Shown here: piece by piece, positions 12,395-59,119 of the stretch | How positions within the stretch are numbered: position 1 is the stretch's first letter | Layout: each line of letters starts with the position of its first letter | IMG/VR virus record: IMGVR_UViG_3300042910_000038 | Direction: 5' to 3' (one strand) | DNA: 64,000 nt | From: a virus | Notes under the pieces: model-generated | The model's database searches: none | Seen by the model: only the letters and a program-made list of their open reading frames with translations | Told to the model about the DNA's origin: nothing | Translations under genes and position numbers: made by a program

Positions 12395-12397
12395 AAT

Positions 12398-14048: not shown

Positions 14049-15023
14049 ATGCCGGATGCCGAAATACTTTCAATAAAAGTTAAAGACGAGACAACAGGCG
14101 TTGTATTCGACGTCTACCCGGGTGGGCAGAAGCCTTTCATAACTTGGACTCCGGACTGGTCTGCGAAATGGAAGTTTCAAGAGTTAACCGTTAGAAACAA
14201 CACAAGCAAATATGTAGTCATATACGTTCATATAGAGCGTGATGGCACTACGCTTAGCATTCTCTCCGGTGGTTTTTCTCTAGGAGAAACGAAGGACTTC
14301 GCACCAAGTATGGCGGCAGTTCCCGCTTATTATGCTCCTCCAACGAGCTACAAGGTGTGGACGGAGATTGGCGGGGTTAAATCCCACGAGGTTCCTTTCA
14401 CTCTAGGTGAAGGCAACTTTGTTAAAACCATACCTTTCCATCCTAATGCTTGGATAGAATACACAACAACAGGGCTTCTTTCAGACAAAATCCCCGGCTG
14501 GCTAATATACTCCCACGGGGCAACAGCAACGCTGACAGTTAAGCTTGGCTGGGTTAAACTTGGCGGCGTCGAATATAAAGGATGGGGCGGAGCATGGCTT
14601 ATAGACGGGGCTTTAAAGCCAAACCCGGTAACTCTGACAGTTGACCACAACGTCACAGCACAATCATTGCCAGGAGCATTCTCGCCGTTCCTACCGCTTG
14701 AAGATATAAACCTAGACGGAAAGATAGATGCCAAAGACCTTGCTTTGGTTTGTCGCGCTTGGGGTTCCAAAGTTGGCGACCCGAGGTATGACCCTCTGGT
14801 TGATTTTAATGGAGATGGGCAAATAGACGCGAAGGATTTGGGCTTAGTTTGCAGAGAATTTGGAAAGGTAAATGAGTCACCGCCTCGTGCGACAACGCTT
14901 TACGAGGCTAGGGCTGCGGTTAGCGCTATGACCTCGCAGGCTATGGCTGGAGCCGCTGCCACCGCAGCCGGCATCATTTTAACTGAAACTGCTAGGAAAA
15001 TCATGCGTGAGGTGAAGAAGTGA
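14049..15023 (+). CDS. Dockerin-domain protein with C-terminal helix
   Basis: EDINLDGKIDAKDLALVCRAWG...VDFNGDGQIDAKDLGLVCREFG (duplicated Ca-loop). Confidence 0.85.
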   Translation: MPDAEILSIKVKDETTGVVFDVYPGGQKPFITWTPDWSAKWKFQELTVRNNTSKYVVIYVHIERDGTTLSILSGGFSLGETKDFAPSMAAVPAYYAPPTSYKVWTEIGGVKSHEVPFTLGEGNFVKTIPFHPNAWIEYTTTGLLSDKIPGWLIYSHGATATLTVKLGWVKLGGVEYKGWGGAWLIDGALKPNPVTLTVDHNVTAQSLPGAFSPFLPLEDINLDGKIDAKDLALVCRAWGSKVGDPRYDPLVDFNGDGQIDAKDLGLVCREFGKVNESPPRATTLYEARAAVSAMTSQAMAGAAATAAGIILTETARKIMREVKK

Positions 15024-15577
15024 TGGTTTGGCTTCCGCCTCGAGAAGTAACCGTTGGAGAGGTTCTGCCGTCCGAATATTTGACGGTTCAACCTGCTGAC
15101 GGCGCTAAACCCGCTTCAATAGTTGACTCGATGCCTGACCCGTTAACTGTTGAAATCAAAGCGCAGAACATTATGCTTCTGGAAATGGATATACCTGTGT
15201 ATCTTGAAAACCGTGGCTTCTCAAAGTCTCAAGTTGCGGCGTACGTATCTAACGTCTCAATGAGTGCAAGACAGTTCAAGTTCCATTTAGATGTTCAACC
15301 GCCGTTCTTCTTAACAGCGCATTTGCCTAAACAGTGGAGGGTTAGGAGCGCAACTGTTGACGGGAAAACTCCGGAGCTTTACGCCTACGACCCAGACGCA
15401 AACACAGTTTTTGTGGGGATAACTGAAACTTCTTCTCCGGTTGACGTCGTTCTCCAGCTTGAGCCAACGATGGAGTCGATTACAAACGCTGTTGTAGGAG
15501 TCTTCGCCATAATAATCATTGTACCATTCATTAAAGCCGTAATCAAAGAGGCTATCGAAGCTTTCAGGAAGCGCTAA
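15020..15577 (+). CDS. Beta-rich domain with coat-like C-terminal helix
   Basis: Tail TMESITNAVVGVFAIIIIVPFIKAVIKEAIEAFRKR. Confidence 0.65.
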   Translation: MMVWLPPREVTVGEVLPSEYLTVQPADGAKPASIVDSMPDPLTVEIKAQNIMLLEMDIPVYLENRGFSKSQVAAYVSNVSMSARQFKFHLDVQPPFFLTAHLPKQWRVRSATVDGKTPELYAYDPDANTVFVGITETSSPVDVVLQLEPTMESITNAVVGVFAIIIIVPFIKAVIKEAIEAFRKR

Positions 15578-15583
15578 AATAGA

Positions 15584-16207
15584 ATGCCTGCTGAAACAAG
15601 GTTTCTCAGAGCCGATGCCCACACAGTTAACGGTTTAACAGCATACAAGTTTGGGAAGGAGCCAAGCGTAGCTTCAGACTCTTTAGGAATAAGCGTCTAT
15701 TTGGCTGAAACTTATGCAGACCAGTACTTGGCGGTGGAAGTTTGCAGGAGAAGCAAGGACGGGAAAGAAACGTCGATAAGCGGAGGCTTAATTGGCGAAG
15801 TTAAGGGAAACGACACGGGGCTTTTAACTGCTAAATGGAAGTGTCCAAAGGTTGATTTAGCCCCAGCAGACGCAATTGTTCTACACGTTTACGGCGGAAC
15901 ATCTTCACCGCCAAGCAATCTTTTAGCATCCTTCATAACTGAGCCTTTAGGCGCTAAAAGCCTCGATGAGGCTGAATGGACAATAAACCTCATGCTTGAA
16001 AGGAAATATGAGGTTGTAGACTCCCAGCCAATAACAACATACAGCCTACTAATAGGCTCAACATCCTACATTGAAAACTTCACGTGGACTCCATACGTTT
16101 TAGTAGCCGAATTTATACCACAGGCTGTTCAGTTAATCAGCGCAATGCTTGTCCTCATCTTCATAGTTTCATTATTGAAGCAAGTTGTTAGAAGCTTGAG
16201 GAGATAG
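15584..16207 (+). CDS. Paralogue family C (with 23075) plus coat-like C-terminal helix
   Basis: MPAETRFLRADAHTVNGLTAY vs MPTETRYMRSDQQTINGLTAY; both contain ENFTWTPY. Confidence 0.65.
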   Translation: MPAETRFLRADAHTVNGLTAYKFGKEPSVASDSLGISVYLAETYADQYLAVEVCRRSKDGKETSISGGLIGEVKGNDTGLLTAKWKCPKVDLAPADAIVLHVYGGTSSPPSNLLASFITEPLGAKSLDEAEWTINLMLERKYEVVDSQPITTYSLLIGSTSYIENFTWTPYVLVAEFIPQAVQLISAMLVLIFIVSLLKQVVRSLRR

Positions 16208-16209
16208 AC

Positions 16210-17367
16210 TTGCAGTATGAGTTCACTGTTCCGGCTCACCACGTTTTTCTCGTTAAAACTGGAACTTACACGTATGATGTTTATTATCCTAAACAGTTAA
16301 ACAACGGGATAACCAATTACGTTTGTAGGGAATTCGCAAAACGCACGGTAGACTTCAAAACCGACCCGCCGGAATGGAAAGAAGAAAAAACAATTGATGT
16401 GGCTTCTCCAAGCGGTTTTGCAAACCCCGTTCTGCCATACAAGAACATTCTAGGCTATGACTTTTACAGGAAGCGAATCCTTTTTGTTCTAGGGGAATGG
16501 GATGGAAAATCGTGGCTTTTTCAGGGGACAAGGGCTAAACTTTTAGCCGTAGACCTAGGCTTCTCCAAGGCTGAGGTTCTAAACGACGACCTTTTCACGT
16601 TGGCACAAGAAGCTGTTCCGGAAGCTACACATATTAAGGGGTATGCAAACTTCGGCGGCTACGGTGGTAAACTGGTTGGCATACTTGCCGTATATTCCAA
16701 TGCAGAGGAAAGGTCTGTTGCTCTGGTTTTTGACGGTTCAAGCTGGTATGCTGTTAGAGCCAACACTAGACGGGATACAGTGCAGGAAGGAGTTGTCCCA
16801 ATATGGGATACCAAGGACAATTTTATAGGCTGGCTTACGGAAGGTCACAGCGATAACAGCCACTTCATAAGGATAAGTGACCTACAAGTTATACCCTGCT
16901 ACCCGCCGTTCTCAACAACAAGCGAGCCAGCCTACGACATGATAAACCACAAAATAGTTTGGACGGAGTGGGGGGCAGGCGAGGCAATATCCCAGAGAAT
17001 ATACGTTTCAGACCCAGACCCGACAAACGGATGCATAAACTTCAGAAATGCAACTCCATACGGAACAGTAAAGGATAATGAAGGAAACACCATAAACTTG
17101 ACGATAATGAGCAAGTATGCCCCAAGCATATTCCAAAACGGAGCCAACAAATGGCTTGTTATAGGGGCTTTCAGAGGCGGCATCCCAGAAGGGTTCCACA
17201 GAGTTTTCAAAGTCGATTTGGAAAGCTATTCAGATGCAAGCAAGTGGGACTTAATTAAAGACCCGTCTGGAAACGATAAGCTTGTTAAGGGAATGGTCAC
17301 ATGCATAAGCACCGATGGGAAACCTTTACCGGCTCCAATGTTCCCAGTCACTCCGTCTAGAGGTTGA
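16210..17367 (+). CDS. Hypothetical beta-rich protein
   Basis: 385-aa ORF in operon, no anchor or recognisable motif. Confidence 0.55.
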   Translation: MQYEFTVPAHHVFLVKTGTYTYDVYYPKQLNNGITNYVCREFAKRTVDFKTDPPEWKEEKTIDVASPSGFANPVLPYKNILGYDFYRKRILFVLGEWDGKSWLFQGTRAKLLAVDLGFSKAEVLNDDLFTLAQEAVPEATHIKGYANFGGYGGKLVGILAVYSNAEERSVALVFDGSSWYAVRANTRRDTVQEGVVPIWDTKDNFIGWLTEGHSDNSHFIRISDLQVIPCYPPFSTTSEPAYDMINHKIVWTEWGAGEAISQRIYVSDPDPTNGCINFRNATPYGTVKDNEGNTINLTIMSKYAPSIFQNGANKWLVIGAFRGGIPEGFHRVFKVDLESYSDASKWDLIKDPSGNDKLVKGMVTCISTDGKPLPAPMFPVTPSRG

Positions 17368-23074: not shown

Positions 23075-23626
23075 ATGCCAACTGAAACCCGTTACATGCG
23101 TTCCGACCAGCAAACTATAAACGGTTTAACAGCTTACATTTTAGGTTTAACGCAGACAGCCGCTTACGCATATGTTTCCGCCGCTTATGAAGGTAGAGCG
23201 GCGGCTTATTTTGACATTCAGATTGCTGTCCGCCATGCCGATGGAACAGAAACAATCCTGCTTAACTGGTACACATTTGCAACTAGAGGCGTAAGTGGCT
23301 CTGGCTATCAAACTTACAGTTTTAGCTGTCCAGCTACAACTTTAAGCCCAACAGACGCTATTGTTGTCCGCCTCCGAGCCCGCAACACAGGAGGCTCTGA
23401 AACAGCAACTTTCATAACTGAGCAGCTTGGAGCTTCAGCGCTTCCAGCGGCAACGTGGACGTTCTACGTCTACACCGTTGCAACTGTAACTGCAACTGGA
23501 AGCCTAGCTGAAATCGACTTCGGAGACTCAGCCCATAACACTCGGGTTGAAAACTTCACATGGACACCTTATGGCGTTCCACGTTTCATAGGTGACGGTT
23601 TAAGTGGAGTGGTTGTGATAATTTAA
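23075..23626 (+). CDS. Paralogue family C structural-like protein
   Basis: Shared N-terminus and ENFTWTPY with 15584. Confidence 0.6.
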   Translation: MPTETRYMRSDQQTINGLTAYILGLTQTAAYAYVSAAYEGRAAAYFDIQIAVRHADGTETILLNWYTFATRGVSGSGYQTYSFSCPATTLSPTDAIVVRLRARNTGGSETATFITEQLGASALPAATWTFYVYTVATVTATGSLAEIDFGDSAHNTRVENFTWTPYGVPRFIGDGLSGVVVII

Positions 23627-23628
23627 AG

Positions 23629-24561
23629 GTGGTTAAAAAGTTGCGTTTTATGGTTACTGGGGGGTCGGGATTTATCGGGAGCCATTTAGTTGAAAAGCTT
23701 ACCAGTGACAGGTATGAAATTGTAGTGCTTGTTAGGGATGTTCTGCCTTCTCCGTGGGGAAGCTGGCTGAACGAAGCTTTGAAGAGTGCTGTTCAGGTTC
23801 GCGGTGACGTTTTAGATTTTAACGTTTTAAGGCGAGCCGTTTCAGACTACGAATGTGAAGCAGTCTTTCATTTAGCGGCTCAGGCTGTTGTCCGTAAAGC
23901 GCAGGCTGACCCTTCAACAACAGTTCAAACAAACGTTTTAGGAACGCTTAACGTTCTTGAAGTTGCAAGGCAATTAGATGTCCCGTTCACTTACATAATG
24001 AGCACGGATAAAGTTTACTTTGAAGGAATGAACAAAAAGGAAGAAGACGCTCTACAAGCCGGAGAAATCTATGGCACGTCTAAAGCAATGGCAGACCTGC
24101 TCGCCCAATCCTACGCAAAAACATATGGGCTGAAAATCGCTATCGGTAGAGCCTGCAACTGCTACGGTTACGACCTATCGCCGAGAATAATCCCAAACAC
24201 AATAAGAAGCTGCCTAAAAGGAGAAAGCCCAATAATCTACCGGGGGGAAGAAACCCTCCGCCAATACATATACGTAAACGATTTAGTCACAGCAATCATG
24301 CACCTAGCAGAAAACAGGCTAACAGGCATATACAACATAGCAACAGACGACATCCTAACACAAGAACAAGTAGTCCTAAAAATCCTCGAAAACTTCCCAA
24401 CAATAAAGCCAAAATACGTTGAAAGAGAAAAGCCGATAAAAGAAATCCAAAAACAAAGCATGAACTGGAGCAAGATAAAAAACACGGGGTGGACGCCAAA
24501 ATACACATTTGAAGCGGGAATTAAAGAAACAATTCAGAAATTCAAAAAATACGGGTTCTAG
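23629..24561 (+). CDS. NAD-dependent nucleotide-sugar epimerase/dehydratase (extended SDR)
   Basis: VTGGSGFIG, YGTSK (YxxxK), RACNCYG. Confidence 0.92.
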   Translation: MVKKLRFMVTGGSGFIGSHLVEKLTSDRYEIVVLVRDVLPSPWGSWLNEALKSAVQVRGDVLDFNVLRRAVSDYECEAVFHLAAQAVVRKAQADPSTTVQTNVLGTLNVLEVARQLDVPFTYIMSTDKVYFEGMNKKEEDALQAGEIYGTSKAMADLLAQSYAKTYGLKIAIGRACNCYGYDLSPRIIPNTIRSCLKGESPIIYRGEETLRQYIYVNDLVTAIMHLAENRLTGIYNIATDDILTQEQVVLKILENFPTIKPKYVEREKPIKEIQKQSMNWSKIKNTGWTPKYTFEAGIKETIQKFKKYGF

Positions 24562-24863: not shown

Positions 24864-27299
24864 GTGAGCGACTTCCTGCTCTTTCACGGCATGATAGCAT
24901 ATGATGAGCAGTTTGCTGGAGCCAAACAGAACGTTGAAGAGATGTCTCCATACGTCGACTATGTAATATTAGTCGTGGAAAAACAAAGACCATTTACAGA
25001 AGAACAGAAAAAAGAACTTTTAAAATATCCAAACGTGATACTGCTTGAATTGCCTTTTGAAGACAACATCCCAAGCTTTCGTAATAAATATTTAGATAAA
25101 GCTAAAGAAATAATGAAACAGCAAAACAAGCCCGGATGGATGGCAGTCCTAGATACAGACGAGCACTTCTGCAAGGAGCTAAGAGAGAACCTCAGAAAAA
25201 TAATTGCTGAATATGATGCGAAGAATTACACGCAGCTTGGCGTTAGATGCCTTGAAGGTTTCGAAGTTCACGACTGGATGGATGACATTGACAAGCTTAA
25301 AGAGTCCGCTACAAATCTGAGGCAGTCAAGCTATTTCAAAAGTTTGATATTCCGCATCTGTTGCGACCAGTTGCATTACGCTGGAATCGGAAATCCGCCA
25401 AACGCCGTCCACGAGTGGTGGGGGTGTCCTGTCCATCCGTGGAAGCCGATTTATCTGCCGCCTCATCTGACATACTCTCATATAAAAAGCAGTTTAACTA
25501 TATGGCGTAACTCGGCTAGAAACGTATATTTAAACGGAGGGGGCAACAACCTCGGCGACAAGGTGCCCGAATGGGTTGAGCTTCGCAGCATCTGCAATGC
25601 TTTAGGCATATCTTGTTGGCGTGAGTATGAAGCCTATTTAAAGAGGGGCAACGTTGACCCGTTGCTTAAAAAGTTTCTGATTAAGTGTTTGGATATGCCT
25701 AGAACGGATTTTGGCGTCGAGTATAGGCAAATGTGCGTGAGTGGAGATACCTTGGTAGTTACACCTAACGGAGTAAAACCCATTAAGGATTGTAAGGGGG
25801 AAAAGTATGTTTTAGGTTTTGACTTTCATCGAGGAAAAGTTGTATGGGCTTTGATTTTAGATTATTTCTGTACCACGTCTGATGATATTTATACAGTTGA
25901 AACTGCAAATCATCGCTTACGAATAACAGGCGATAACGAAGTTTGGACTGAGAAAGGCTGGGTTCCAACCGAAAAACTTAAGAAGCATAGACTACTAACA
26001 CTAAATTTAGTGACGTTAGACGATGCCACTCAGGTGGACTCCGGAAGAAATACGTATTCTAAAGGAAAATTACCAGCACATGACCATAAAAGAACTGCAA
26101 CAGAAGTTCTTTCCAAATCGAAGCCTTGGCTCTGTTCGTGGGAAGATAGAGAAGTTACACTTAACCAAGGGCAAAATCAAAAGATGGACAACGGAAGAAG
26201 TGGAAATATTAACGAAAGCTTATCGAGCGAAAGTTCCCTTGTCACAGATACCATTAGAGAGGAGTTATCAGGCTATAGCAGTAAAGGCACAAAGGTTGGG
26301 ATTGGCAAGAAAACAGAGTTTTTACATGAAGAACATAGAGAAGATGAAAGATACAGAATGGGCATACCTAGCGGGGTTGATAGATGGGGAGGGAACAATC
26401 ACAATAACAATTTCTCAAAAAGGTTCCAAAATCGAGATGAGACCACGAGTTGTGATTTCAAATTCGTGTCCAAGGCTTGTAGCGTGGTTGAAAGAGAGGT
26501 TGAGTTATGTGCCACGACGCGCAGCTCAGGGTCGAGACGTTCGGAGACGTTATACAATCCCAAATTACATAATCAATGTTACTGGGTTGAGGGAAGTGAA
26601 AGAAATCTTGGAGAAAACGTTGCCTTATTTGATAGTGAAGAAAGAGCAGGCAGAAATAGTATTGGAATATATCCGGGGAAGGAAGAAAGGGATGCCATAC
26701 GTGGAGAGGGACTTCGAACTTTTGTTGAAGGTAAGAAGATTAAACTTGCGTGGGAGCAAGTTAGAAAGATTCGAAAGGAGATTTGCAGAGTTAAAGAGGT
26801 TGTATATGACTTTACGACGTCAACGGGGAACTTTTTCGCGAATGGCATTCTGATTCATAACTGTTTATGGTATTTTGCCATGCATCCGGATGAGCTTACG
26901 CCTGAAATATTGTTTAAGATTAAGAATCCGCCTAAAATGACGCCTGAACAAGAAGTGGAATGGTATGTGATTTCCCAGTATCGTTATGTGCTTGGAAGAG
27001 AACCTGATGATGCTGGTAGGCGGCATTATGTTCAGGCTATTTTGGAGGGTAGGATTAGGCGTGAGGATTTGCCTAAAATACTGATGATGAGCGAGGAGTA
27101 TAGGCAGAAGTTTAACATTGATGAGACTGTTCAATGGGTTATAAACTGTTACCGTCAAGTGTTGAAGCGAGACCCGGATGAGGAGGGCTTACGGGTCTAC
27201 GTTGACCACATTGTTAAGGGAAGAATAAACAAGGAAGACTTGCCTAGGATATTAATGGAAAGCGACGAATACCGCTCAAGGTTTGGGGGAAGGAGTTGA
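24864..27299 (+). CDS. GT2-like glycosyltransferase containing an intein, with two C-terminal DUF4214-like repeats
   Basis: N-terminal GT-A-like region with RN...VLDTDE; intein; YRxVLxRxPDxxG repeats twice; about 435 aa after splicing. Confidence 0.7.
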   Translation: MSDFLLFHGMIAYDEQFAGAKQNVEEMSPYVDYVILVVEKQRPFTEEQKKELLKYPNVILLELPFEDNIPSFRNKYLDKAKEIMKQQNKPGWMAVLDTDEHFCKELRENLRKIIAEYDAKNYTQLGVRCLEGFEVHDWMDDIDKLKESATNLRQSSYFKSLIFRICCDQLHYAGIGNPPNAVHEWWGCPVHPWKPIYLPPHLTYSHIKSSLTIWRNSARNVYLNGGGNNLGDKVPEWVELRSICNALGISCWREYEAYLKRGNVDPLLKKFLIKCLDMPRTDFGVEYRQMCVSGDTLVVTPNGVKPIKDCKGEKYVLGFDFHRGKVVWALILDYFCTTSDDIYTVETANHRLRITGDNEVWTEKGWVPTEKLKKHRLLTLNLVTLDDATQVDSGRNTYSKGKLPAHDHKRTATEVLSKSKPWLCSWEDREVTLNQGQNQKMDNGRSGNINESLSSESSLVTDTIREELSGYSSKGTKVGIGKKTEFLHEEHREDERYRMGIPSGVDRWGGNNHNNNFSKRFQNRDETTSCDFKFVSKACSVVEREVELCATTRSSGSRRSETLYNPKLHNQCYWVEGSERNLGENVALFDSEERAGRNSIGIYPGKEERDAIRGEGLRTFVEGKKIKLAWEQVRKIRKEICRVKEVVYDFTTSTGNFFANGILIHNCLWYFAMHPDELTPEILFKIKNPPKMTPEQEVEWYVISQYRYVLGREPDDAGRRHYVQAILEGRIRREDLPKILMMSEEYRQKFNIDETVQWVINCYRQVLKRDPDEEGLRVYVDHIVKGRINKEDLPRILMESDEYRSRFGGRS
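25734..26861 (+). mobile_element. Intein (376 aa)
   Basis: Block A CVSGDTLVVTPNG, block B-like LRITGDNEVWT, blocks F/G VYDFTTSTGNFFANGILIHN followed by +1 Cys. Confidence 0.9.
26023..26853 (+). CDS. LAGLIDADG homing endonuclease with N-terminal Myb-like repeats, encoded in the +1 frame inside the intein
   Basis: WAYLAGLIDGEG; WTPEEIRILKENY and WTTEEVEILTKAY; 26023 is +1 relative to frame 24864. Confidence 0.88.
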   Translation: MPLRWTPEEIRILKENYQHMTIKELQQKFFPNRSLGSVRGKIEKLHLTKGKIKRWTTEEVEILTKAYRAKVPLSQIPLERSYQAIAVKAQRLGLARKQSFYMKNIEKMKDTEWAYLAGLIDGEGTITITISQKGSKIEMRPRVVISNSCPRLVAWLKERLSYVPRRAAQGRDVRRRYTIPNYIINVTGLREVKEILEKTLPYLIVKKEQAEIVLEYIRGRKKGMPYVERDFELLLKVRRLNLRGSKLERFERRFAELKRLYMTLRRQRGTFSRMAF

Positions 27300-30770: not shown

Positions 30771-31483
30771 TTTTCTCCCCGGTTTTCGACTATGCAACTA
30801 CAGTTGGTAATAACTCTTTGCATGCTGTGGTGGTTCCTTACATTAAGGCTCCATGGGTGCTGACTATGCTTGAGAAAGATAGTGCGACGAGGAGCAATTT
30901 GGAAAGTGCTTTGACAAGTAAAAACCCGTCAATTGTTTGGCTGGATAGCCACGGTAATGAAGTCTGCTTGGCTGAAACAGAGACGACTTGCGCTGTAGAC
31001 CTTACATCAGATTTATCTAAGCTTTTTAGTGGGCGTATCGTTTATATCAATGCGTGTTTATGCGGGAAGAAGTTGGCTCCAGCGATGGTTAGTGCGGGCG
31101 CTAGGGCGGTTTTAGCGTACACAGACGATGTTGTTGTTGTAATTGACCCGAGCACTAGACGAATGATAAGACCTTTTGAAGAAACCATTCTACACCCAAA
31201 AAGGCTATATGACTACATTTCCGTGGGACAAGTTTACGATGAAACAATTAAAAAATTCAATGAGTGGATTGATTGCTTAAAAGTTTGGGACCCCTCGGTT
31301 AGAGATGCGCTCTTACATGACCGTGACTGCTTTAAGCTTTTCGGAGACCCAAGTGCTGTTGTCCAATCTTCATCACAGCTAGTTGCGTCAGCCGAACGTG
31401 CTATTGCAACCGTTACAGTGGCTACTTTGCTTGTACAAACTTTTCTCATTGCAACGTTAAGAGCCGTGCTTAGGAGGAAGTAA
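30749..31483 (+). CDS. Clan CD-like cysteine peptidase with C-terminal membrane helix, copy 2
   Basis: WLDSHGNEVCL; YINACLCG. Confidence 0.6.
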   Translation: MGLYDTVIFSPVFDYATTVGNNSLHAVVVPYIKAPWVLTMLEKDSATRSNLESALTSKNPSIVWLDSHGNEVCLAETETTCAVDLTSDLSKLFSGRIVYINACLCGKKLAPAMVSAGARAVLAYTDDVVVVIDPSTRRMIRPFEETILHPKRLYDYISVGQVYDETIKKFNEWIDCLKVWDPSVRDALLHDRDCFKLFGDPSAVVQSSSQLVASAERAIATVTVATLLVQTFLIATLRAVLRRK

Positions 31484-31484
31484 T

Positions 31485-33062
31485 ATGGCAACCCAAAGCG
31501 AAATAAGAAGAGCTATTGCCTATGGCGACCGGTACCTCGATAGGTTAACAGATACGGTGACATGGAAAGGGACAACCATAACGCTTCTCAAATCGTTTCC
31601 ATTTATACCAATTATTGTGTACAACAAGGGTCAGAATTTTTGGACTTTTCCTGGAGGCATGCAGTTCATTGCCTACCGTGACCCTAGTACAGGTGAATAT
31701 ATGGGTTGCATTTTCCCCTCTGTTAGCATTTACACCGAAAAGATGACAGGCGAAGAATGGGAAGGAACCTACGATTTTGGAAACAGGATTAGCTATGACT
31801 ATGAAGACCTTTTCTACTGCATGGGCGGAATAGTTATTACCGACTATGGCGTTCCTACGGTAGATGTTCACTACTGGATTGACGGAAACGATGTAGTAGT
31901 TGATTTGAAATTTTACAGAGGTTTTCCATTTGCAGCTTATATGGGTAACCAACTCATATGTGAAACCTATAAAGTTGACGAAACCCCATCTCCAAGCGAG
32001 TTTACTTTTCGTTTTCCATGGGGTGCTGGCTTAAGAAGTCATAGGTATGTTATTGACTACGACCTATTTATGTACGCTTTGTATGCATGGTATGACCGCC
32101 CAGTCCAGCGGAGCAAGGCTCAATCAATCTTCAAGTTTTTAGACGATAACGGATACCGCATTCCCAGCGTCTATGACCCGTTGTATAGACAAACCGACGG
32201 GCTTCCAGACAACTGGATTACGAACCTAGATGCTCTTCTTAAAGTTAATGACAACTACAAGTATTGTGTCGAGAGGTTCGCCGATGGTTACGGAGACTAC
32301 AAATTCGAGTTTCCGATGGGAGGTCCGCCGTGGGCTGATGAGCATGGTAAGCGTGAGGAGCCAACGCCATACTTTCCTCATCTTTCATACAAAAGCTGGT
32401 GTAGAGAGACGCTTCGAGATGTGAGCCTAGGACGTCGCCCATTTGACTCTTGGCTTGCGATGCGCGCTATGCACGTAATGAACAAGTATGGTAGCCCGTA
32501 CGCCAAAGACGACCTTGGAAACTCAGCCTACGATTACCTGATAAAGGGCTATAAAGATGACCAAGGGAATTCACGCCCTCCAATAAAGGCAAACATTACG
32601 TCAGACGGTTATCAGCCGGCAGGTTCTCCGTATTATTTCAGTCCAGCGTACATTCTTCCAGCCTTTGCTGAGCTTGGCTATGGTTTTGGTGACAGTGATG
32701 CTAAGTCTATAGCTGACTTATTAGCCGACTGCTTGGTGAAAAGTCAATGGGGCTATCAATCCAACTTTGCTGATGGGCGATATGCCACCAACGACTATGG
32801 AGTTATAAACAGACCGGAGCACATAGGCGGATTCATTAAAGCTTGGACTATGAAAAATGGTGTTTACAATGCTGTAGATGTTGGTCGTATTATGCAACAT
32901 GTTGAAAGCATTAGTGAAGTGCAAGCTTTTTCGCTATTTTGGTATTTTGATGGTTACGGTTTTGTCGGCGAAACCCCCATGTTTATGCCAACAACTTCCG
33001 AAACTACATTGGCTGCTGTGCGCGCTCTAAGAATCTATGAATCATACAAATACCGTATGTGA
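31485..33062 (+). CDS. Paralogue family B copy 2
   Basis: MATQSEIRRAIAYGDRYLDRL; AELGYGFG; RALRIYESYKYR. Confidence 0.65.
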   Translation: MATQSEIRRAIAYGDRYLDRLTDTVTWKGTTITLLKSFPFIPIIVYNKGQNFWTFPGGMQFIAYRDPSTGEYMGCIFPSVSIYTEKMTGEEWEGTYDFGNRISYDYEDLFYCMGGIVITDYGVPTVDVHYWIDGNDVVVDLKFYRGFPFAAYMGNQLICETYKVDETPSPSEFTFRFPWGAGLRSHRYVIDYDLFMYALYAWYDRPVQRSKAQSIFKFLDDNGYRIPSVYDPLYRQTDGLPDNWITNLDALLKVNDNYKYCVERFADGYGDYKFEFPMGGPPWADEHGKREEPTPYFPHLSYKSWCRETLRDVSLGRRPFDSWLAMRAMHVMNKYGSPYAKDDLGNSAYDYLIKGYKDDQGNSRPPIKANITSDGYQPAGSPYYFSPAYILPAFAELGYGFGDSDAKSIADLLADCLVKSQWGYQSNFADGRYATNDYGVINRPEHIGGFIKAWTMKNGVYNAVDVGRIMQHVESISEVQAFSLFWYFDGYGFVGETPMFMPTTSETTLAAVRALRIYESYKYRM

Positions 33063-33063
33063 A

Positions 33064-33408
33064 CTAAGAAGGCACGATTAACAATAGAACTTCATAGGTG
33101 TTCACTTCAACGTAAACGACAACAGTTGTGTTTGGGTATTTTGGGCATTCAAAGGACAAAACCCAACAGACTTCTCCTTCGTAGTAACCTTCACGAATGT
33201 TTAAAAGTTTACCGATGAATTCGCTCATGTTACCTTTCTCGAAAAATTCTCTGGTAGCTTTTACAGCAGGATGGTTTGCGTAAACGTCGTTCAAATCTGA
33301 AAGCTTGGGAGTTGTTGTCTGTCTATAAATTGGTTTTTGACTTATGCTGATTACTAGGGACAAGGCAATCATGGACAGCAAACAAATCAAGAATATTTTC
33401 CTTTTCAT
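33064..33408 (-). CDS. Signal-anchored small protein
   Basis: MKRKIFLICLLSMIALSLVIS; start reassigned to ATG after TTTTTGGGTG. Confidence 0.6.
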   Translation of the reverse strand: MKRKIFLICLLSMIALSLVISISQKPIYRQTTTPKLSDLNDVYANHPAVKATREFFEKGNMSEFIGKLLNIREGYYEGEVCWVLSFECPKYPNTTVVVYVEVNTYEVLLLIVPS

Positions 33409-33445
33409 TAAATCACCCAAAAATACGATTGTTTTTTGAAAATAT

Positions 33446-33919
33446 TTAGGTTTTGCATGTTGCCGTTAGCTCGTTCGGTCCAAACAGCCCTATAACCACG
33501 AACGTTTTCGCCCTTGAAAGCAGTTTTAGAAACGGCTTCTTGTATGGGGTGACCCTTACAGACGGGTAGACCTTCACTTCCTTGAAGGCTTGTTTCAGAA
33601 AGGTTTCAAGGGTTTTTTTGTTCCAACTGTATAGGTGTTCATATGCAAAGTCGCATTTGGCGTTTGGAACCTTGATGATGACGGTTCCACGGCAAACTCT
33701 TTCAAATTCCTTTACAGCGTCTAATGGATGCTTTAAATGTTCAATGACGTGGCTTGCGTGAACTAGGCTGAAACATTTGTCCTTAAAAGGTAGATAGTGG
33801 GCATCGCAGACAACCTCAACGTCCTCGGCACGTAAAACGTCAACATGCACAACCTCCCCACCTTTAAACCTAAAAGGCTTACCGCCGCTGCCAACATCTA
33901 AAATCAAGAAACCACCCAA
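33446..33919 (-). CDS. Class I SAM-dependent methyltransferase
   Basis: LDVGSGG, CDAHYLPF, ASHVIEH. Confidence 0.85.
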   Translation of the reverse strand: MGGFLILDVGSGGKPFRFKGGEVVHVDVLRAEDVEVVCDAHYLPFKDKCFSLVHASHVIEHLKHPLDAVKEFERVCRGTVIIKVPNAKCDFAYEHLYSWNKKTLETFLKQAFKEVKVYPSVRVTPYKKPFLKLLSRAKTFVVIGLFGPNELTATCKT

Positions 33920-33926
33920 ATAAAAA

Positions 33927-34088
33927 CTAGCCCTTCTCTTCCTCCTCTTTAATAACGCCCTGCCTTTTCAGAAGCTCATACGTTTCAATTAACCTTCTCT
34001 CAACAGCCTTAGGAAACATTATACTCCAATACTTCTGCCAGTCCTCAGCAGCCTTCTCTGGAGGCGGATAACGGGACTTTTTACCCAA
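33927..34088 (-). CDS. 53-aa protein whose N-terminus resembles 8495
   Basis: TTG start after motif; MGKKSRYPPPEKA vs MGRRAKYPSPELA. Confidence 0.55.
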   Translation of the reverse strand: MGKKSRYPPPEKAAEDWQKYWSIMFPKAVERRLIETYELLKRQGVIKEEEEKG

Positions 34089-37433: not shown

Positions 37434-38734
37434 GCAAGGAAGCCTACGAGCTTTAGCCGTGGGAGGAATTGTGACCATGACATTTTTATGTAGATTCGCT
37501 TATCTCCTTTTCGGGGACGCCTACGAGGAAATGTTTGCCTCTTAACCTTCTTGAGCCGACTAAGGCTAAGAGAAGGATGCTTAAGCAAACTTATGAAAGC
37601 TTCTTCAATATTATGCAAGAAGCTCTCGGCTTCGTCGGCGACGTTAAGTCGAGGGCTGAGCTTCATAACAAGACATATGAGAAGTTCAGAGGCAAATACG
37701 GTGTGGCGTCCCAGCTTATCATAGAGGCTACAAGCTACGCTTGGAGCATAAGGAGAACTGTGGAAGAAGACATCAACAAATGTGTCGTGAGGTTTGACAA
37801 GAGGCTTTTCAGCTTCAGGCAGACTAAGAGGGGAAATCCAATCCTCAGCCTTAGACTTAACCATGAAAGAGTAGGGCTTCCAATAAGTCAAGATGGTGCC
37901 TATAGGAGGCTTCAAAACCACCTCGAAGATGGTTGGAAGATAACAAGCATCATCATGAAACGAAACCTCAGGTTCCTCGTCGTCCTCTCTAAAGACTTTC
38001 CAGAACCCCCTTACAGACCAAACTGGATGGGTGTGGACGTTAACAGTTCCAAAATCGCCATATCCATCGTTAGTAAAGGGAAAGTGCTGAAGCAAACCTA
38101 TTTCGGACAAGATGTCTCCATAAAACAGTTCATGTTTGAAGAGAGGAGAGCAAAACTTCAGAGTTATCGAGACAAGGGCTCCAGCAAAGCTGGTCTCAAG
38201 CTTAGGAAACTTAGTGGAAAACAGAGAAACTACGTTAGAACAAGAATGTGGCAGATAGCTAACGAAATCGTTAAGCTGGCTAAACAATTCAACGCTAACA
38301 TAGCTATCGAAAAACTCAGAAACCTTAGAAAGCATAGAGGTGAGTGGAGCAAGAATAGCCGGAAGAAAGTTAACCGCATACCCTACGCACTTTTTAGGCA
38401 CGCCTTGAAATGTGTAGCTGAAAGAGAGGGAATATTTATGAAAGAGGTTGCCCCCAGTTACACAAGCCAAACCTGCCCACGGTGTGGGCATATCAGTAAG
38501 GAGAACTGGAGAGGTTATGTCTACTTCAAATGCGTCAGATGCTGTTATGAAGCGGATAGAGACCGAGTTGCAAGTCTCAACATCGCCCTCAGGGCGGCTC
38601 CAAAAGTAGGCGTCCCCAAACGCTATTTCTGGAGCCAGTTTCCTGAGGGAGATGCCTCCGTCAGCAGGCACATTTTGAAGGATGAAGGGTGTGGAAGATG
38701 GCATCAAACCACCCTAAGCTTCAAACCCGCTGAC
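37434..38734 (+). mobile_element. IS200/IS605-family (tnpB-only) element
   Basis: Subterminal hairpin AAGCCTACGAGCTTTAGCCGTGGGAG (37440-37465); removing 37434-38734 restores an open frame for the interrupted gene; no tnpA. Confidence 0.7.
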
Positions 38735-38737
38735 TAA
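37535..38737 (+). CDS. tnpB: TnpB RNA-guided endonuclease
   Basis: RuvC GVDVN, IAIEKL, ADRDRVASLNI; zinc finger CPRCG..CVRC. Confidence 0.92.
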   Translation: MPLNLLEPTKAKRRMLKQTYESFFNIMQEALGFVGDVKSRAELHNKTYEKFRGKYGVASQLIIEATSYAWSIRRTVEEDINKCVVRFDKRLFSFRQTKRGNPILSLRLNHERVGLPISQDGAYRRLQNHLEDGWKITSIIMKRNLRFLVVLSKDFPEPPYRPNWMGVDVNSSKIAISIVSKGKVLKQTYFGQDVSIKQFMFEERRAKLQSYRDKGSSKAGLKLRKLSGKQRNYVRTRMWQIANEIVKLAKQFNANIAIEKLRNLRKHRGEWSKNSRKKVNRIPYALFRHALKCVAEREGIFMKEVAPSYTSQTCPRCGHISKENWRGYVYFKCVRCCYEADRDRVASLNIALRAAPKVGVPKRYFWSQFPEGDASVSRHILKDEGCGRWHQTTLSFKPAD

Positions 38738-39449
38738 GCAGTTTCTCTATGAGCCACGAGCTTGACTGAACTTTGCCTCCTCCAACGCCGTAAACAATCT
38801 TTATGCCAAGCCTTTCACACGCATCTTTTTCACATGTTGGTAGGTTTTCTGGAGAGTATTCTCCACCTTTTGCGTAGATAATTCTGTGCTTCGGATACTT
38901 TTTCCTGAGCTTTTCAAGCTCGGCAACCTGTGTTAAATCGCAGTTTTCGCTGCAAACCCAAATCTCGTCAATGTACCGAATGGACTGCAAAACGGCTTTC
39001 CTGTCCTCAAGCGGAACAGCGCAAATCCCCCTTTTCCTTTTAACACATTCGTCTCTATGAATGCAGACAATCAGGTAGTCGCCGAGCCTTTTAGCTTCGC
39101 GGAACAAGTTTATGTGCCCTCTGTGGAGAATGTGGAAGAACCCGCCCGTGAAAACTATTGTCTTATCCACGTTAAACTCCTCCGAGTCAAGTAAATAAAC
39201 AGGGTTAAAATATGACTTTTTCCTCTTACCAAAAGCCTCAGAAACTCTAACGTGCTTCTTTGTCTCCAAACATTTGACGGCAACAGCCTTTCCATCACCG
39301 CTAATCCACACTACAACACCTCTGTGACCGCACGGAGCCTTAACCCTGCTTCCAACCTTAACACGCTTCTTAAACGATGGAAGCACGCTTTCCCTCCTAA
39401 ACTTAAGCCAAGAAAACTGCATCCTAATCCCACCACCACAGGGCTGCAA
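38721..39449 (-). CDS. Cytidylyltransferase-family (HIGH) nucleotidyltransferase with N-terminal extension; 3' end interrupted by IS
   Basis: FTGGFFHILHRGHINLFREAKRLGDYLIV; KVQSSS. Confidence 0.85.
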   Translation of the reverse strand: MQPCGGGIRMQFSWLKFRRESVLPSFKKRVKVGSRVKAPCGHRGVVVWISGDGKAVAVKCLETKKHVRVSEAFGKRKKSYFNPVYLLDSEEFNVDKTIVFTGGFFHILHRGHINLFREAKRLGDYLIVCIHRDECVKRKRGICAVPLEDRKAVLQSIRYIDEIWVCSENCDLTQVAELEKLRKKYPKHRIIYAKGGEYSPENLPTCEKDACERLGIKIVYGVGGGKVQSSSWLIEKLLSQRV

Positions 39450-50766: not shown

Positions 50767-50777
50767 TGATTGTCACT

Positions 50778-51125
50778 CTAAATACGGTATCCGAAGCATA
50801 TTAAATCGTAAAACTCAAACAAATACTCGTATTTGCCAGATTCCAGTTCACGCTTCAGAATCTTCTTTAGTATCTCTTCAGCCTCAGCCATAGACACCTT
50901 CATTTCCTTAGCAATCCGCTTGACAACTTCCTTCCTAGGCAAACACGTAGAATCAGAAATACCGTCCCCCTGTTCCCAAATCACATCCTTCGCTATCTCA
51001 AGGGCTTTTTCAACAACATCTTCCTGCTTAACCATCAAGACATCTGGACCACACTTTGAACAGTAATATGTCCCCTCAGGCTTTTCAACCGACCTACCAC
51101 ATTTAGGACAAACATAAACTGGCAT
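50778..51125 (-). CDS. Zinc-leader protein 5
   Basis: MPVYVCPKCGRSVEKPEGTYYCSKCGP. Confidence 0.7.
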   Translation of the reverse strand: MPVYVCPKCGRSVEKPEGTYYCSKCGPDVLMVKQEDVVEKALEIAKDVIWEQGDGISDSTCLPRKEVVKRIAKEMKVSMAEAEEILKKILKRELESGKYEYLFEFYDLICFGYRI

Positions 51126-55607: not shown

Positions 55608-56723
55608 TTAGTCGGTGGTAATTATAGGCGCCAACCAGAACGTTATTTGGCTTCCGTATAGCTGTGTTAGTATTTCAGTTTTTATAGGCATGTCTGAAGC
55701 TAAATGCAACGTTGCTATGTCTCCTATTTTCGGCAGTATCCTTACAAGCTCTTCAGTTTTGAAGCTTGCCTTAACATCCCTGTAACCCTCTAAAGCCAAA
55801 AGTATATCCGAGCCTTTCTTAACGTTCACCTCAGCCTTAACCGTTTCACCCTTACCAGTCAAAGTTAAACCCTCATCCGTAGCCTCAATGGTAACCGTGT
55901 CAGCCTTCTGCTTAATCCTCTCAAGCTTAGCCACAAACTTGTCCAAGTCAACCTTAGCTAAAACTTTAAAGTCAACCTTTGGAACAGGCACATCCTCATA
56001 ATGCTCGTCCAGAAGGCTCAAAGTAAACCTGTCCCTAGAACTTCCAACATCAACGCGCACAATGAACTCGCTTTCCTTGATACTAGGCTCACTTGTCCAA
56101 ACACTTTCCTTACGCTTCCAGACGCGAACTTTGCCCCTCCACTTGCACGTTGAACCGTCAGGCAAACGCCAACCACATTTATACCGCGTCCCTTTCGGAC
56201 CCCTCTGATTTGGCATGAGCATGTTATAAACCGTTGGGTTTCCACATTTTGGACACGTTTCAGGCTTCCGCCTCTCAACCTCAATAACGCTTCTCCGACA
56301 ATTGTAAACCGTCTTAACCTCAAACTCAGCCTTAGAATACTTATCGCATTCAGCCAAAGCATACAATAGCTCGCTTGCCAAAACATGGACGGTTACAGGC
56401 AAATCAACAGTCTTCATTCTGGGCGAGGCTGGCGCAACCTCGTAAGATTCCATATCAGTCTTCGAAACGCTTACGTCAGCCAACTTGTAGCGGTCGCTAT
56501 CCATAAACCTCAAAGACAAACCGTCATAGCTAAAGGTTAAAGGCAAAGCATCCTCACTGTAGCCACCTTTAAGAAAGCTCTGATGCAAAGCCTTCAACAA
56601 ACTCCTAAAAGTCAACAACTGCTCGCCGCCAAAACTGAACCTGACAACAACGCCTCTTTTGAAAACTCTTGGCTGTTTAGACTTTTCCTTCTGAACAACA
56701 ACTTGCTCCGTCATACAAAACAC
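55608..56723 (-). CDS. pcn: PCNA (sliding clamp) homologue with zinc-finger insertion
   Basis: LTFSYDGLSLRFMDSDRYKL, YEDVPVPKVDF, ADTVTIEA, SDMPIK, FWLAP; insert CPKC...C..C. Confidence 0.78.
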   Translation of the reverse strand: MFCMTEQVVVQKEKSKQPRVFKRGVVVRFSFGGEQLLTFRSLLKALHQSFLKGGYSEDALPLTFSYDGLSLRFMDSDRYKLADVSVSKTDMESYEVAPASPRMKTVDLPVTVHVLASELLYALAECDKYSKAEFEVKTVYNCRRSVIEVERRKPETCPKCGNPTVYNMLMPNQRGPKGTRYKCGWRLPDGSTCKWRGKVRVWKRKESVWTSEPSIKESEFIVRVDVGSSRDRFTLSLLDEHYEDVPVPKVDFKVLAKVDLDKFVAKLERIKQKADTVTIEATDEGLTLTGKGETVKAEVNVKKGSDILLALEGYRDVKASFKTEELVRILPKIGDIATLHLASDMPIKTEILTQLYGSQITFWLAPIITTD

Positions 56724-56743
56724 CCAAAAAAATATATGCTATT

Positions 56744-57121
56744 TTGGTGAATTTCTTTTTTGTGAGATGTATGGCAACTGAGTATGAGAGATTGATGACT
56801 GAAGAGGAAAAGAGGCGTGCTGAACGTGAACGGAGATGGGAAAGAATTTCCCATGAAATGGAAAGAGAAGCTAGGGTGAGACTAGATGCTATTGGTAGGG
56901 CAATGTCAATATCAGCGGTTATCGATGAAGTCAAACTGGCGAAGCATAAGTTCAAAGGATACATAGACACTATCCGGAGAGACTTACCTGAATATGTTGA
57001 CGATGCAATAGCATCGGTAACTTTCTACTTAAGCGACATCTGGAGCAAAGGCAGAGAAAGAATAACTGAAATATACGATAAACTTGTAGGTGAAGAGTCG
57101 GTATACACAAAGCCTACGTAA
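56744..57121 (+). CDS. Isolated + strand helical protein
   Basis: Opposite orientation, AT-rich TATA-like upstream. Confidence 0.5.
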   Translation: MVNFFFVRCMATEYERLMTEEEKRRAERERRWERISHEMEREARVRLDAIGRAMSISAVIDEVKLAKHKFKGYIDTIRRDLPEYVDDAIASVTFYLSDIWSKGRERITEIYDKLVGEESVYTKPT

Positions 57122-57401: not shown

Positions 57402-57698
57402 TCAGCCAAAAACCAAGCCAGCAGTTTTCTGTATATACCTTCTGGCTAACGGATACTTCATCATCAGTTTATGATACTCCCTTAATGCTGGAACAACTCT
57501 CTCTTTCATGTCTCTCTCAGCATCGCCAGTCCTCGGCGGAAGCGTAGCAAGAAAACTCATCCACTCATCCATAAACCTAAAATACTCTTCCTTTTCGGGA
57601 GAAAGCCTCTGCAAACGAGTTCCACAAACCTTACAAGTGTAACTTCCCTCTGACAAGTCGACATATCTATTACACTTTGGACATTTATAAATCGGCAT
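57402..57698 (-). CDS. Zinc-leader protein 8
   Basis: MPIYKCPKCNRYVDLSEGSYTCKVCG. Confidence 0.7.
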   Translation of the reverse strand: MPIYKCPKCNRYVDLSEGSYTCKVCGTRLQRLSPEKEEYFRFMDEWMSFLATLPPRTGDAERDMKERVVPALREYHKLMMKYPLARRYIQKTAGLVFG

Positions 57699-57739: not shown

Positions 57740-58195
57740 TTAGGTGTAAGGAGATACTGAACCATAATACTCTAGACAATTAGGCGGTATGTTCTTGAAA
57801 ACCAGAACTTTCTCTGGGCTTCTGATGATTCCCGCTTTTGCTTGACGTTGTAACCTATCCCAAATTCTTCTTCCGTAATACTTTATTATGCGTTCTGCAT
57901 CATCGTAGTATTGGTCATAGTCAACAATTCTTCCAGTCTCATCGAGCGCAAGCGTTATACTTTTGAAATCTGGGATTCCGTTGATAACGTCTTTTACGTC
58001 TAAATATGATAACCCTCTATCCGAAAGCCATCTTTCTAAATCATCGCCACAAAGCCTAGCTCCTCTCTTTAAAGGAAACACTTCATGTGACCCAACAGGT
58101 TCCATAACATAAGTCGGACCACAAACAGCACAGTAGTATGTCCCTTCTGGTTTTTCCACACGCCTGCCGCATTTTGGACACACATAAACCGGCAA
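57740..58195 (-). CDS. Zinc-leader protein 9
   Basis: TTG-PVYVCPKCGRRVEKPEGTYYCAVCGP. Confidence 0.7.
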   Translation of the reverse strand: MPVYVCPKCGRRVEKPEGTYYCAVCGPTYVMEPVGSHEVFPLKRGARLCGDDLERWLSDRGLSYLDVKDVINGIPDFKSITLALDETGRIVDYDQYYDDAERIIKYYGRRIWDRLQRQAKAGIIRSPEKVLVFKNIPPNCLEYYGSVSPYT

Positions 58196-58238
58196 TCTAA
58201 ACACCCAAAAAGATATTCGTTGACCTTTCCATATAAAG

Positions 58239-59119
58239 CTATTTGCCTATTGAAATTGCTAAGACCTTGTGCAGTTCAGCGTTCAAGTTCCGTTTAGTGA
58301 ACATGCTGGCTGTTTCGCTGTGCCAAATTGCACGAGTCACATCATCATAGACCTCCCATAGAGTTGCTGGCTTCAAAATTTCTATTTTGTTTTCAACAGC
58401 TTTAATGTATTCTGGCAGATACTTCTTTGGCAATCTTTCAGCAAGGCGTTCTGCAATTTCTTGGTTCAGCTTCAGCGCAGTCAAAGCCCTATAATTGTCA
58501 AGTATAGCCTTGCCCCTGTCAACAATCTCCAGAATCGTTGTCTTCAGCTTTCCAACGTCAAGCTCCAAATGCTTCGTATGCTTCCAATACGCCTTAATCT
58601 CCAAATCACCAGTCTTCACAACAACTCCATTGGAGCATATCAATCGAAAAGTAAACAGGTCTATGCCAAACCCCATAGAACCATTTCCGAGGAGACGTGC
58701 CTCCACACAGTCTCCTCTTCGGAGTTTCTCACTTGCACGCCTAACTGCACTTTGTCGCCTGTGTCTATCTTGTAGCGTTCTGGGAAAACCATTGTCCAGT
58801 AGGCTCTGAAGCTTTTCTCGTCGAAATCGTACACAGTTCTTCCGCCATGAACAAGCTCATGTCCGCTCCGCTTCATCACTTGTAAGCCAAACATCTCGCT
58901 CAGTTGCTCAACAGCTTGGTTAACCATAGCGTTCGGCAAAAGCCGGTATCCGCGGCTAACAATCGATATTACTCTAGGCTGTTCCTTGATTTCCTTGATT
59001 ATGGCTTTGAACGGAATCCGCTGACCCTTAAACTTCAACGGAGCTTCATAAAGCCCGTAGTCTGCGAACTTGTCGTCTATCCGCTCAAAGTCAAGCCAAA
59101 CACCAGACAGCTTTTCCAT
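58239..59119 (-). CDS. DUF932-like protein, spliced (exons 58717-59119 and 58239-58684; 282 aa)
   Basis: VSRGYRLLPN; after splicing VRNSEDGSMGFGIDLFTFRLICSNG. Confidence 0.75.
58685..58716 (-). other. 32-nt archaeal bulge-helix-bulge intron in a protein-coding gene
   Basis: CCGA-AG^A-GGAGAC-13 nt-GUCUCC-UCGG-AA^A; excision restores frame and NSxDG motif. Confidence 0.8.

Follow-up and report, generated by a model that had tools for sequence, protein, structure and literature searches.

How does a gene that lies in two overlapping reading frames come to encode a single protein? The question is raised by a locus on the minus strand of a 64,000-nucleotide stretch of virus-derived DNA, IMG/VR record IMGVR_UViG_3300042910_000038 (the whole stretch analysed is hereafter called the window). 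Two open reading frames (ORFs), 59119-58661 (152 aa) and 58706-58239 (155 aa), overlap there in different frames, and they are confirmed to be the two halves of one DUF932-family gene. The 32 nucleotides (nt) at 58685-58716 are read here, with a probability of roughly 85%, as an archaeal-type bulge-helix-bulge (BHB) intron within the coding sequence, an ORF-less derivative of a mobile intron that would be spliced by host enzymes.

Deletion of 58716-58685 joins G to AU and produces a frame of 849 nt, or 282 aa, with the junction VRNSEDGSMGFG. The spliced-junction motif is RNSEDGSMGFG, which contains NSEDGS, and the codon for its invariant Asp (G/AU) is formed only once the 32 nt are removed. 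Shifting both cuts one base in the 3' direction gives an identical product, and every other placement fails. The minus strand from 58730 to 58677 reads AGAAACU CCGA AGA GGAGAC (13 nt) GUCUCC UCGG AAA UGGUUCU, and the parts of the gene are arranged as follows.

58717..59119, minus strand: exon 1 of the DUF932-family gene, 403 nt, whose last base G is the first of the Asp codon (from the ORF list, the spliced translation and the alignment with homologues P0001-P0008).

58685..58716, minus strand: predicted BHB mini-intron, 32 nt, composed of A, GGAGAC, a 13-nt loop with an extra 4-bp stem, GUCUCC, UCGG and AA; its removal restores the frame and RNSEDGS.

58239..58684, minus strand: exon 2, 446 nt including the stop codon, which starts with AU, completes G/AU and carries the DUF932 match.

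58719..58722, minus strand: CCGA, the exonic 5' strand of the central 4-bp helix, pairing with UCGG at 58687-58690.

58716..58718, minus strand: the 5' bulge AGA, with the predicted cut at 58717/58716; AGA is found in 9/9 introns at this site (site 1).

58691..58715, minus strand: inner helix and loop, GGAGAC/GUCUCC (6 bp) plus GUGU/GCAC closing a 4-nt loop (from RNA folds and the covariation table).

58684..58690, minus strand: UCGG, the 3' strand of the central helix (58687-58690), and the 3' bulge AAA (58684-58686), with the predicted cut at 58685/58684.

When longer proteins were searched with the C-terminal half, nine were returned, 276-282 aa long and with 65-89% identity, and the 282 aa of the spliced window protein equal the length of the closest homologues. 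In eight of the nine (P0001-P0008) RNSEDGSMGFG is uninterrupted, and R, N, S, D, G and S are invariant among them. The ninth, P0009, has 12 additional residues precisely where the junction falls; the corresponding DNA (contig L001) is interrupted there by a 36-nt insert that has CCGA, AGA, UCGG and AAA as in the window. The C-terminal half of the window gene matches Pfam DUF932 (PF06067) from profile position 74 onward, with 27.8 bits (cut-off 23) and an E-value of 2.6e-6. Continuity of the domain across the junction was judged on the unsplit homologues P0001 and P0003, in place of the spliced window protein; they match DUF932 with 48.5 and 54.8 bits in a single stretch across the junction (residues 49-256). 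The original prediction, made from the window alone, had taken the two ORFs for halves of one protein, had derived the 849-nt frame and NSEDGS from removal of the same interval, with an Asp codon existing only after splicing, and had expected intron-less homologues to read NSxDG. All of this is borne out: NSxDGS stands exactly at the predicted junction of the homologues, and the Asp restored by the 32-nt removal is invariant in the unsplit proteins. Better alignment of the homologues as two genes, which had been named as a refutation, is not what was found, as the unsplit proteins run through the junction in one DUF932 match.

A metagenome scan combined with exact-protein look-ups provided 25 distinct contigs with a readable site. 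Sixteen have no insert, and nine, the window included, have one at the identical position and phase, in every case after the first base of the Asp codon. The insert measures 32 nt in the window, 36 nt in L001, L012, L013 and L015, 816 nt in L018, L023 and L025, and 801 nt in L024. The eight insert-bearing relatives are independent contigs from several JGI and ENA samples.

The strand order of the putative BHB was compared with that of the tRNA 37/38 anticodon-intron pair. A BHB consists of two 3-nt bulges on opposite strands with a 4-bp helix between them, each bulge lying 3' of its own helix strand (PMC6379350). This geometry is found in the window, where CCGA is followed by AGA and UCGG by AAA, and likewise in all nine site-1 introns and in both complete introns at a second site in the gene family (site 2, see below). 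Predicted cuts after the second base of each bulge yield the junction of the intron-less homologues at both sites, and the codon phase is always 1. The fold and this cutting rule had both been put forward from the window; the sequence is as was stated, and geometry and rule recur in the eight other contigs, where insert lengths and sequences differ. The intron helix (h') in the window has 6 bp and a further stem. The outer exon-exon helix (h) is weak and can be drawn in two ways: as a C-G pair behind a U.U mismatch, or as CU/GG and AGAA/UUCU beyond a 4-nt bulge, AAAU. The exon pairing AGAAAC-GGUUCU of the original prediction therefore stands as a partial pairing only. In the strict form, hBHBh', both flanking helices have at least 2 bp; the window motif belongs to the relaxed HBh' class of PMC6379350. 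The strict form is present in L024 (h of 2 bp) and in L009 and L014 (h of 3 bp).

Compensatory changes, counted by script across the seven distinct site-1 introns, support the pairing. Central pairs 1, 3 and 4 and inner pairs 2-6 vary yet stay paired, and the sole exception in the inner helix is one bulged C in L023. Inner pair 3 occurs as A-U, G.U and G-C, pair 4 as G-C, G.U, A-U and U-A, pair 5 as A-U, G-C and U-A, and pair 6 as C-G, U.G and G.U. Because a wobble G.U would be a C.A mismatch on the other strand, the constraint appears to act on the sense-strand RNA and not on DNA. The distant homologue in L024 has the exon sequence AAC GGC AUA G in place of AAC UCC GAA G, and its central helix is GCAU/GUGC in place of CCGA/UCGG; exon and intron strands thus covary, implying that the intron strand was altered to match the exon. 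This intron has bulges AGA and AUA, an inner helix of 15 bp and an outer helix of 2 bp. Its strict hBHBh' is the minimum free energy (MFE) structure of the whole 836-nt segment, and predicted splicing gives NGIDGS.

Both exons are open in all nine insert-bearing alleles, with no further stop or frameshift. The ratio of non-synonymous to synonymous substitution rates (dN/dS) between intron-bearing alleles is 0.05-0.2 in each exon, with synonymous sites near saturation. For L012 and L013 the values are 0.13 and 0.10 in the two exons at a dS of about 1.7, and for the window and L009 they are 0.105 and 0.09. These ratios show purifying selection on both exons of the insert-bearing gene and indicate that it stays functional.

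In the long introns (801-816 nt), the BHB loop contains an ORF of 245-248 aa, which in L018 lies at 189-923. The encoded protein is laid out as two FCS/TRASH-type zinc fingers, a helical middle and a C-terminal nuclease-like domain. Against Pfam it matches PF01870 (Hjc) with 34.9 bits (cut-off 21.1), and zf-FCS and Mrr_cat are also matched. An AlphaFold (AF2) model from four sequences, with a predicted local distance difference test score (pLDDT) of 77.5, has archaeal Hjc as its best structural matches in Foldseek; for 1gef the E-value is 7.6e-5, the root-mean-square deviation 2.3 Å over 92 columns and the TM score 0.67 on the target. Catalytic domains of the tRNA-splicing endonuclease EndA rank below Hjc. 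The equivalents of Hjc E9, D33 and K48 (E164, D189 and K204) are kept. The site-1 ORF is a candidate homing endonuclease of a PD-(D/E)xK, Hjc-like kind. In L024 (2572-2584), the nuclease ORF of the 801-nt intron ends in a TAG situated 7 nt inside exon 2, beyond the predicted 3' splice site; because of this position, the ORF as annotated would be readable only from unspliced RNA. Distant relatives with zinc fingers and an Hjc domain are numerous (256 representatives, with E-values up to 1e-10). The three that were inspected for flanking BHBs and split host genes (P0013, P0015 and P0019; loci L030-L034) appear to be free-standing genes on small-gene, virus-like contigs. A candidate BHB in L033/L034 was rejected, as it leaves no open spliced frame.

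The distribution of the introns and the sequences around them point to mobility. Mapping the presence of introns onto a maximum-likelihood tree of the host gene takes 2-4 changes, and the window allele is nested in a clade that is otherwise intron-less. Its nearest relative, L009 (protein identity 95%; DNA identity 91% over 2.7 kb of flank), has no insert at site 1. Substitutions pile up within about 20 nt of site 1 in three pairs of intron-plus and intron-minus alleles. L013 reads TCC GAA GAT GGA AGT and L011 reads AGC ATA GAC GGC TCT, with 8/22 differences in 20 nt (p 1.8e-6); between L012 and L035, with 97% identity elsewhere, five synonymous differences lie within 15 nt of the site (p 0.005); and the window has AGA AAC TCC where L009 has CGC AAC AGC (p 0.08). 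The sequence AAC TCC GAA G, continued by AT GG after the intron, is common to the eight intron alleles of the main clade. Between L012 and L013, the 36-nt introns show two base differences, although their exons are synonymously saturated. Clustered flanking changes and near-identical introns are the marks that would be expected of homing with co-conversion, or of target-site escape in the intron-less alleles, and either origin would indicate an endonuclease acting at site 1. Beyond what the original prediction had proposed, comparison of the alleles shows the 32-nt element of the window to be, as far as sequence can tell, an ORF-less deletion derivative of a mobile intron of about 800 nt with a nuclease ORF.

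A second intron site in the gene family, likewise not foreseen in the original prediction, came to light since the gene in L009 is 30 nt longer. Site 2 splits the ATT codon of GCA ATT TGG after its first base, immediately ahead of the invariant WHS motif, and it is empty in the window:

58327..58328, minus strand: second intron site (GCA A/TT TGG), here without an insert; the uninterrupted sequence is ACT CGT GCA ATT TGG CAC.

The insert in L009 (3261-3290) is a 30-nt strict hBHBh' with an outer helix of 3 bp, GGGC, bulge AAA, an 8-bp hairpin, GCCC and bulge AGU, and its removal gives exactly the sequence of the intron-less L006. L014 (754-1570) has an 817-nt BHB intron at site 2 with the same GGGC/GCCC helix, an inner helix of 8 bp and an outer helix of 3 bp. 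In L001 the 5' junction of a site-2 insert is seen, from about 1341 to the contig end. The ORF in the L014 intron (785-1552) shares its zinc-finger and helical module with the site-1 ORF (BLASTP E-value 4e-19) and continues after it with the LAGLIDADG motif YIAGLFDGEGSV. It falls below the LAGLIDADG cut-offs, with 19.1 bits for PF14528 (22.5) and 19.4 bits for PF00961 (23.1), both with E-values of about 2e-3, and it is called LAGLIDADG-like here on the strength of the motif. In archaeal rRNA, the homing endonucleases known from BHB introns are LAGLIDADG proteins (PMC2738675), and this motif thus strengthens the reading of both intron ORFs as homing endonucleases. The site-2 introns are, from these comparisons, a putative sister family of those at site 1, with a shared DNA-binding module and a different nuclease domain.

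The following course of events is proposed. Transcription would run through the insert, and exon CCGA would pair with intron UCGG as the central helix beside the AGA and AAA bulges and the intron hairpin. The EndA of the host would cut after the second base of each bulge, and a host RNA ligase of the RtcB type would join the exons to give the Asp codon G/AU and the 282-aa frame; the intron would then be set free, probably in circular form. The weakness of the outer exon-exon helix leads one to expect a host EndA of a broad-specificity type, (alpha-beta)2 or epsilon2 (PMC6379350). The protein encoded by the long forms would cut intron-less alleles at the RNSxDGS-coding sequence, and repair would copy the intron in. 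The mini-intron interrupts the presumed target site and could be lost only by precise deletion, and for these reasons it would persist as long as splicing is efficient.

What kind of element carries this gene was asked with a general Pfam and PHROGs scan of about 50 window ORFs, most of which have no match. Among the few that do are a Rad51/RadA-type recombinase (E-value 2.3e-48), a ParB-like protein, an AAA ATPase, and glycosyl- and methyltransferases. No capsid or terminase is found among the Pfam/PHROGs matches of these ORFs. The element is virus- or plasmid-like, and gene content does not separate the two. ARAGORN finds no tRNA in the window. The nearest Atlas cluster of the window recombinase is mostly Thermoproteota, which is a lead only, and a sample that holds relatives, 3300021472, is Guaymas Basin hydrothermal sediment. 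The host is probably an archaeon, as indicated mainly by the BHB and also by the Rad51/RadA-type recombinase, the Thermoproteota lead and the geothermal sources of relatives. An epimerase-like window gene was discarded as a host marker, as a genome scan gave matches at chance level (23-28% identity) in bacteria and one Methanothrix.

Some further features of the element were observed in passing. Three small minus-strand ORFs (57402-57698, 57740-58204 and 50778-51125) have near-identical zinc-ribbon N-termini (MPxYxCPKC...EG.Y.C..CG) and form a paralogous family, two members of which lie directly downstream of the intron-bearing gene. A cohesin domain (E-value 4.9e-10) and a type I dockerin (E-value 1.8e-9) are encoded by the plus-strand ORFs 407-922 and 14049-15023, and they are possibly a pair encoded by the element. 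An 811-aa ORF at 24864-27299 (plus strand) has an intein-splicing-domain match at residues 306-666, with an E-value of 1.4e-7 that is below the Pfam cut-off, and a C-terminal DUF4214; the intein-like insertion may be a second kind of selfish insertion in the element. A LAGLIDADG_3 gene lies at the end of a related locus, L003. The cumulative GC skew peaks at about 31000-34000, where the coding strand changes from plus (1-33 kb) to minus (33.4-64 kb), so that the gene blocks are convergent.

Several observations weigh against a spliced BHB intron in the window. The BHB is not the MFE structure of the isolated window RNA (-20.1 vs -23.4 kcal/mol), and in the window and its near relatives it lies 2-3.5 kcal/mol above the MFE, where an extension of the hairpin competes with it; this is because GA of the 5' bulge can pair with UC of UCGG and lengthen the hairpin. 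The outer helix is poor, so an EndA of strict specificity might not cut the window motif. No homologue of EndA or RtcB was found by Pfam among the roughly 50 window ORFs, and splicing would for that reason depend wholly on the host. Relatives were found neither in IMG/VR, searched with the C-terminal half and the family alignment, nor in GTDB species genomes, searched with the family alignment. For the presumed nuclease, the equivalent of Hjc E46, the second acidic position of the motif, is Gln (Q202) in all four site-1 ORFs, with IQAK for IEVK. Finally, the BHB-like shape is common by chance. A scan of the window (4-bp helix, 3-nt bulges, inner helix of at least 6 bp, spans of 12-150 nt) found 1319 patterns vs 1252 with the mirrored topology, a rate of about 7.5e-5 per position pair, so the pattern alone is not significant. 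A BHB at the one or two position pairs that restore the protein, together with its recurrence in relatives, is significant; at this rate, and with only one or two such pairs, coincidence is improbable. The search of the whole element for further BHBs that had been suggested along with the original prediction did not extend the finding: a dedicated scan of the window, made with a permissive scanner, gave no convincing further BHB intron, and counts equalled those of the mirrored control. The best frame-merging candidates at 16173-16220, 23603-23650, 50768-50821, 38714-38772, 12356-12470, 56719-56768 and 14966-15031 were rejected as ordinary gene boundaries with normal N-termini.

If the insert were never removed, it would be the footprint of a mobile element at the DNA level, and the gene would be dead or would make two separate polypeptides. 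A gene caller does see two ORFs, the C-terminal ORF has a GTG start within the insert, and the BHB is not the MFE structure, all of which would fit. Such an insert is unlikely, given strong purifying selection on both exons in nine insert-bearing alleles that have acquired no further stop or frameshift, and given an invariant Asp codon that exists only after removal. In the 36-nt alleles, reading through the insert would cost the Asp and place 12 additional residues within the best-conserved motif, and the read-through product scores 32 bits against DUF932, whereas the unsplit proteins score 48-55. The 3-4-3 geometry is moreover held by compensatory changes that extend to the exon side, and a dead insertion would have no reason to keep it. 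An artefact of assembly or sequencing, which would be conceivable for a metagenome-type sequence such as the window, is the least probable explanation of all: eight independent contigs, drawn from several JGI and ENA samples, have inserts between the same flanks.

The ribosome might instead rescue expression, either through a -1 frameshift or by hopping across the hairpin, as happens in T4 gene 60; the long overlap of the two frames and the stable hairpin at the junction would be in keeping with this. Such a rescue is very improbable, since no frameshift makes the Asp codon or the homologous junction, and a hop between the matching GAA codons lands in the wrong frame. The 801-816-nt inserts, with an internal ORF and stops, cannot be bypassed, and the 36-nt variants need no frame change, yet have the same structure. 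Hardly more credible is removal at the DNA level or an element of another class, such as an intein-like element or a self-splicing intron of group I or II. Mobile group I introns and inteins do carry nuclease ORFs, as the long forms do. On the other hand, 32 nt are far too short for a ribozyme, and an Rfam search of the long introns found no group I/II intron and no known RNA family; an intein is excluded by the frameshift that the 32-nt insert causes and by the stop codons in the long forms. The boundaries obey the BHB cutting rule at two independent sites, which argues for the BHB intron over any of these classes.

What would such an intron add to the known cases? In full-text searches of open-access papers and preprints, three things turned up nowhere: a protein gene whose BHB intron holds a nuclease ORF, a viral gene interrupted by an intron with a defined BHB, and an intron endonuclease of the Hjc type. 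To our knowledge, neither an Hjc-like domain nor an FCS zinc-finger module has been described for archaeal intron endonucleases. It seems fairly probable, if less so than the intron itself, that this is the first mobile BHB-intron system in protein-coding genes, located on an archaeal virus or plasmid, with two homing sites per gene, each with ORF-bearing and ORF-less forms, with endonucleases that combine a shared zinc-finger module with a LAGLIDADG-like or a previously undescribed Hjc-type domain, and with viral gene expression dependent on the tRNA splicing machinery of the host. Homing of BHB introns would thereby be extended from rRNA genes to mRNA, and the EndA specificity of the host can become a determinant of host range for a virus. 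Gene callers will misannotate such genes as split or oddly inserted, as happened with P0009.

Introns in the pre-mRNA of cbf5 were reportedly described by Watanabe in 2002. Those of Desulfurococcales and Sulfolobales are 16-44 bp long, have a relaxed motif, interrupt the catalytic codon and have no known ORF-bearing form (PMC2738675). The original prediction had called archaeal mRNA BHB introns rare, with cbf5 as the classic case. A 2023 review counts just two archaeal genes spliced by the BHB route, cbf5 and Haloferax HVO_1309 (PMC10485636). Like the cbf5 introns, those described here include short ones (30-36 nt) in a protein gene, often relaxed, placed in the codon of a conserved residue and patchy by lineage, and some have lengths that are multiples of three and yet would still require splicing. 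Unlike cbf5, a cellular housekeeping gene for which splicing has been demonstrated, the present gene belongs to a virus- or plasmid-like element and its splicing is deduced from sequence; and here ORF-bearing forms of 801-817 nt share their sites with ORF-less ones, there are two sites per gene, and signatures of the homing type are present. For the short cbf5 introns, of which no ORF-bearing form was found, Yokobori et al. (2009) only speculated that they might be deletion derivatives of ORF-bearing mobile introns (PMC2738675). The coexistence of both states at two sites in a mobile element makes this deletion-derivative hypothesis for short mRNA introns directly testable. The mRNA of HVO_1309 in Haloferax volcanii is a substrate of EndA (PMC7714728; reviewed in PMC10485636). 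It resembles the present case in having a BHB in an mRNA, which there is cut by the tRNA splicing endonuclease, and differs in being the transcript of a cellular gene with no mobility and no ORF. Variants of the archaeal virus SIRV1 have putative 12-bp in-frame inserts in their genes that were proposed as introns, for which the account in PMC2738675 (citing Peng et al.) gives no demonstration of splicing or of a BHB. They are similar in being short inserts in protein genes of an archaeal virus; in contrast to them, the 32-nt insert is out of frame, its BHB is defined, and counterparts exist both without an intron and with an ORF-bearing one.

The closest parallel in mobility is offered by the BHB introns of archaeal 16S and 23S rRNA, which carry LAGLIDADG homing endonucleases (I-DmoI, I-PorI, I-ApeI) and include deletion derivatives in Aeropyrum (PMC2738675); they have also been surveyed in Thermoproteales (PMC4496867). 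Shared with them are a BHB at the boundaries, a nuclease ORF in the loop, insertion into the most conserved target sequence, a patchy distribution, ORF-less derivatives and, at site 2, a LAGLIDADG motif. The differences are that the target here is an mRNA, in which splicing must restore a reading frame, that the predicted site-1 nuclease is Hjc-like PD-(D/E)xK, and that both ORFs have an N-terminal FCS zinc-finger module. Six families of homing endonucleases are listed in PMC6083498, and the PD-(D/E)xK family may gain an Hjc-type member. The modular endonucleases of the two sites, which join the same DNA-binding module to one or the other of two nuclease domains, would constitute a natural experiment in the evolution of homing endonucleases. 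A PD-(D/E)xK fold employed for homing, predicted here, is known from I-Ssp6803I, and the group I introns of phages (T4 td, nrdB and sunY) are likewise mobile introns in conserved viral protein genes with co-conversion of flanking markers. Those are self-splicing ribozymes of bacterial systems; the present introns give no ribozyme signal and would be removed by a host protein enzyme that recognizes the shape of the RNA.

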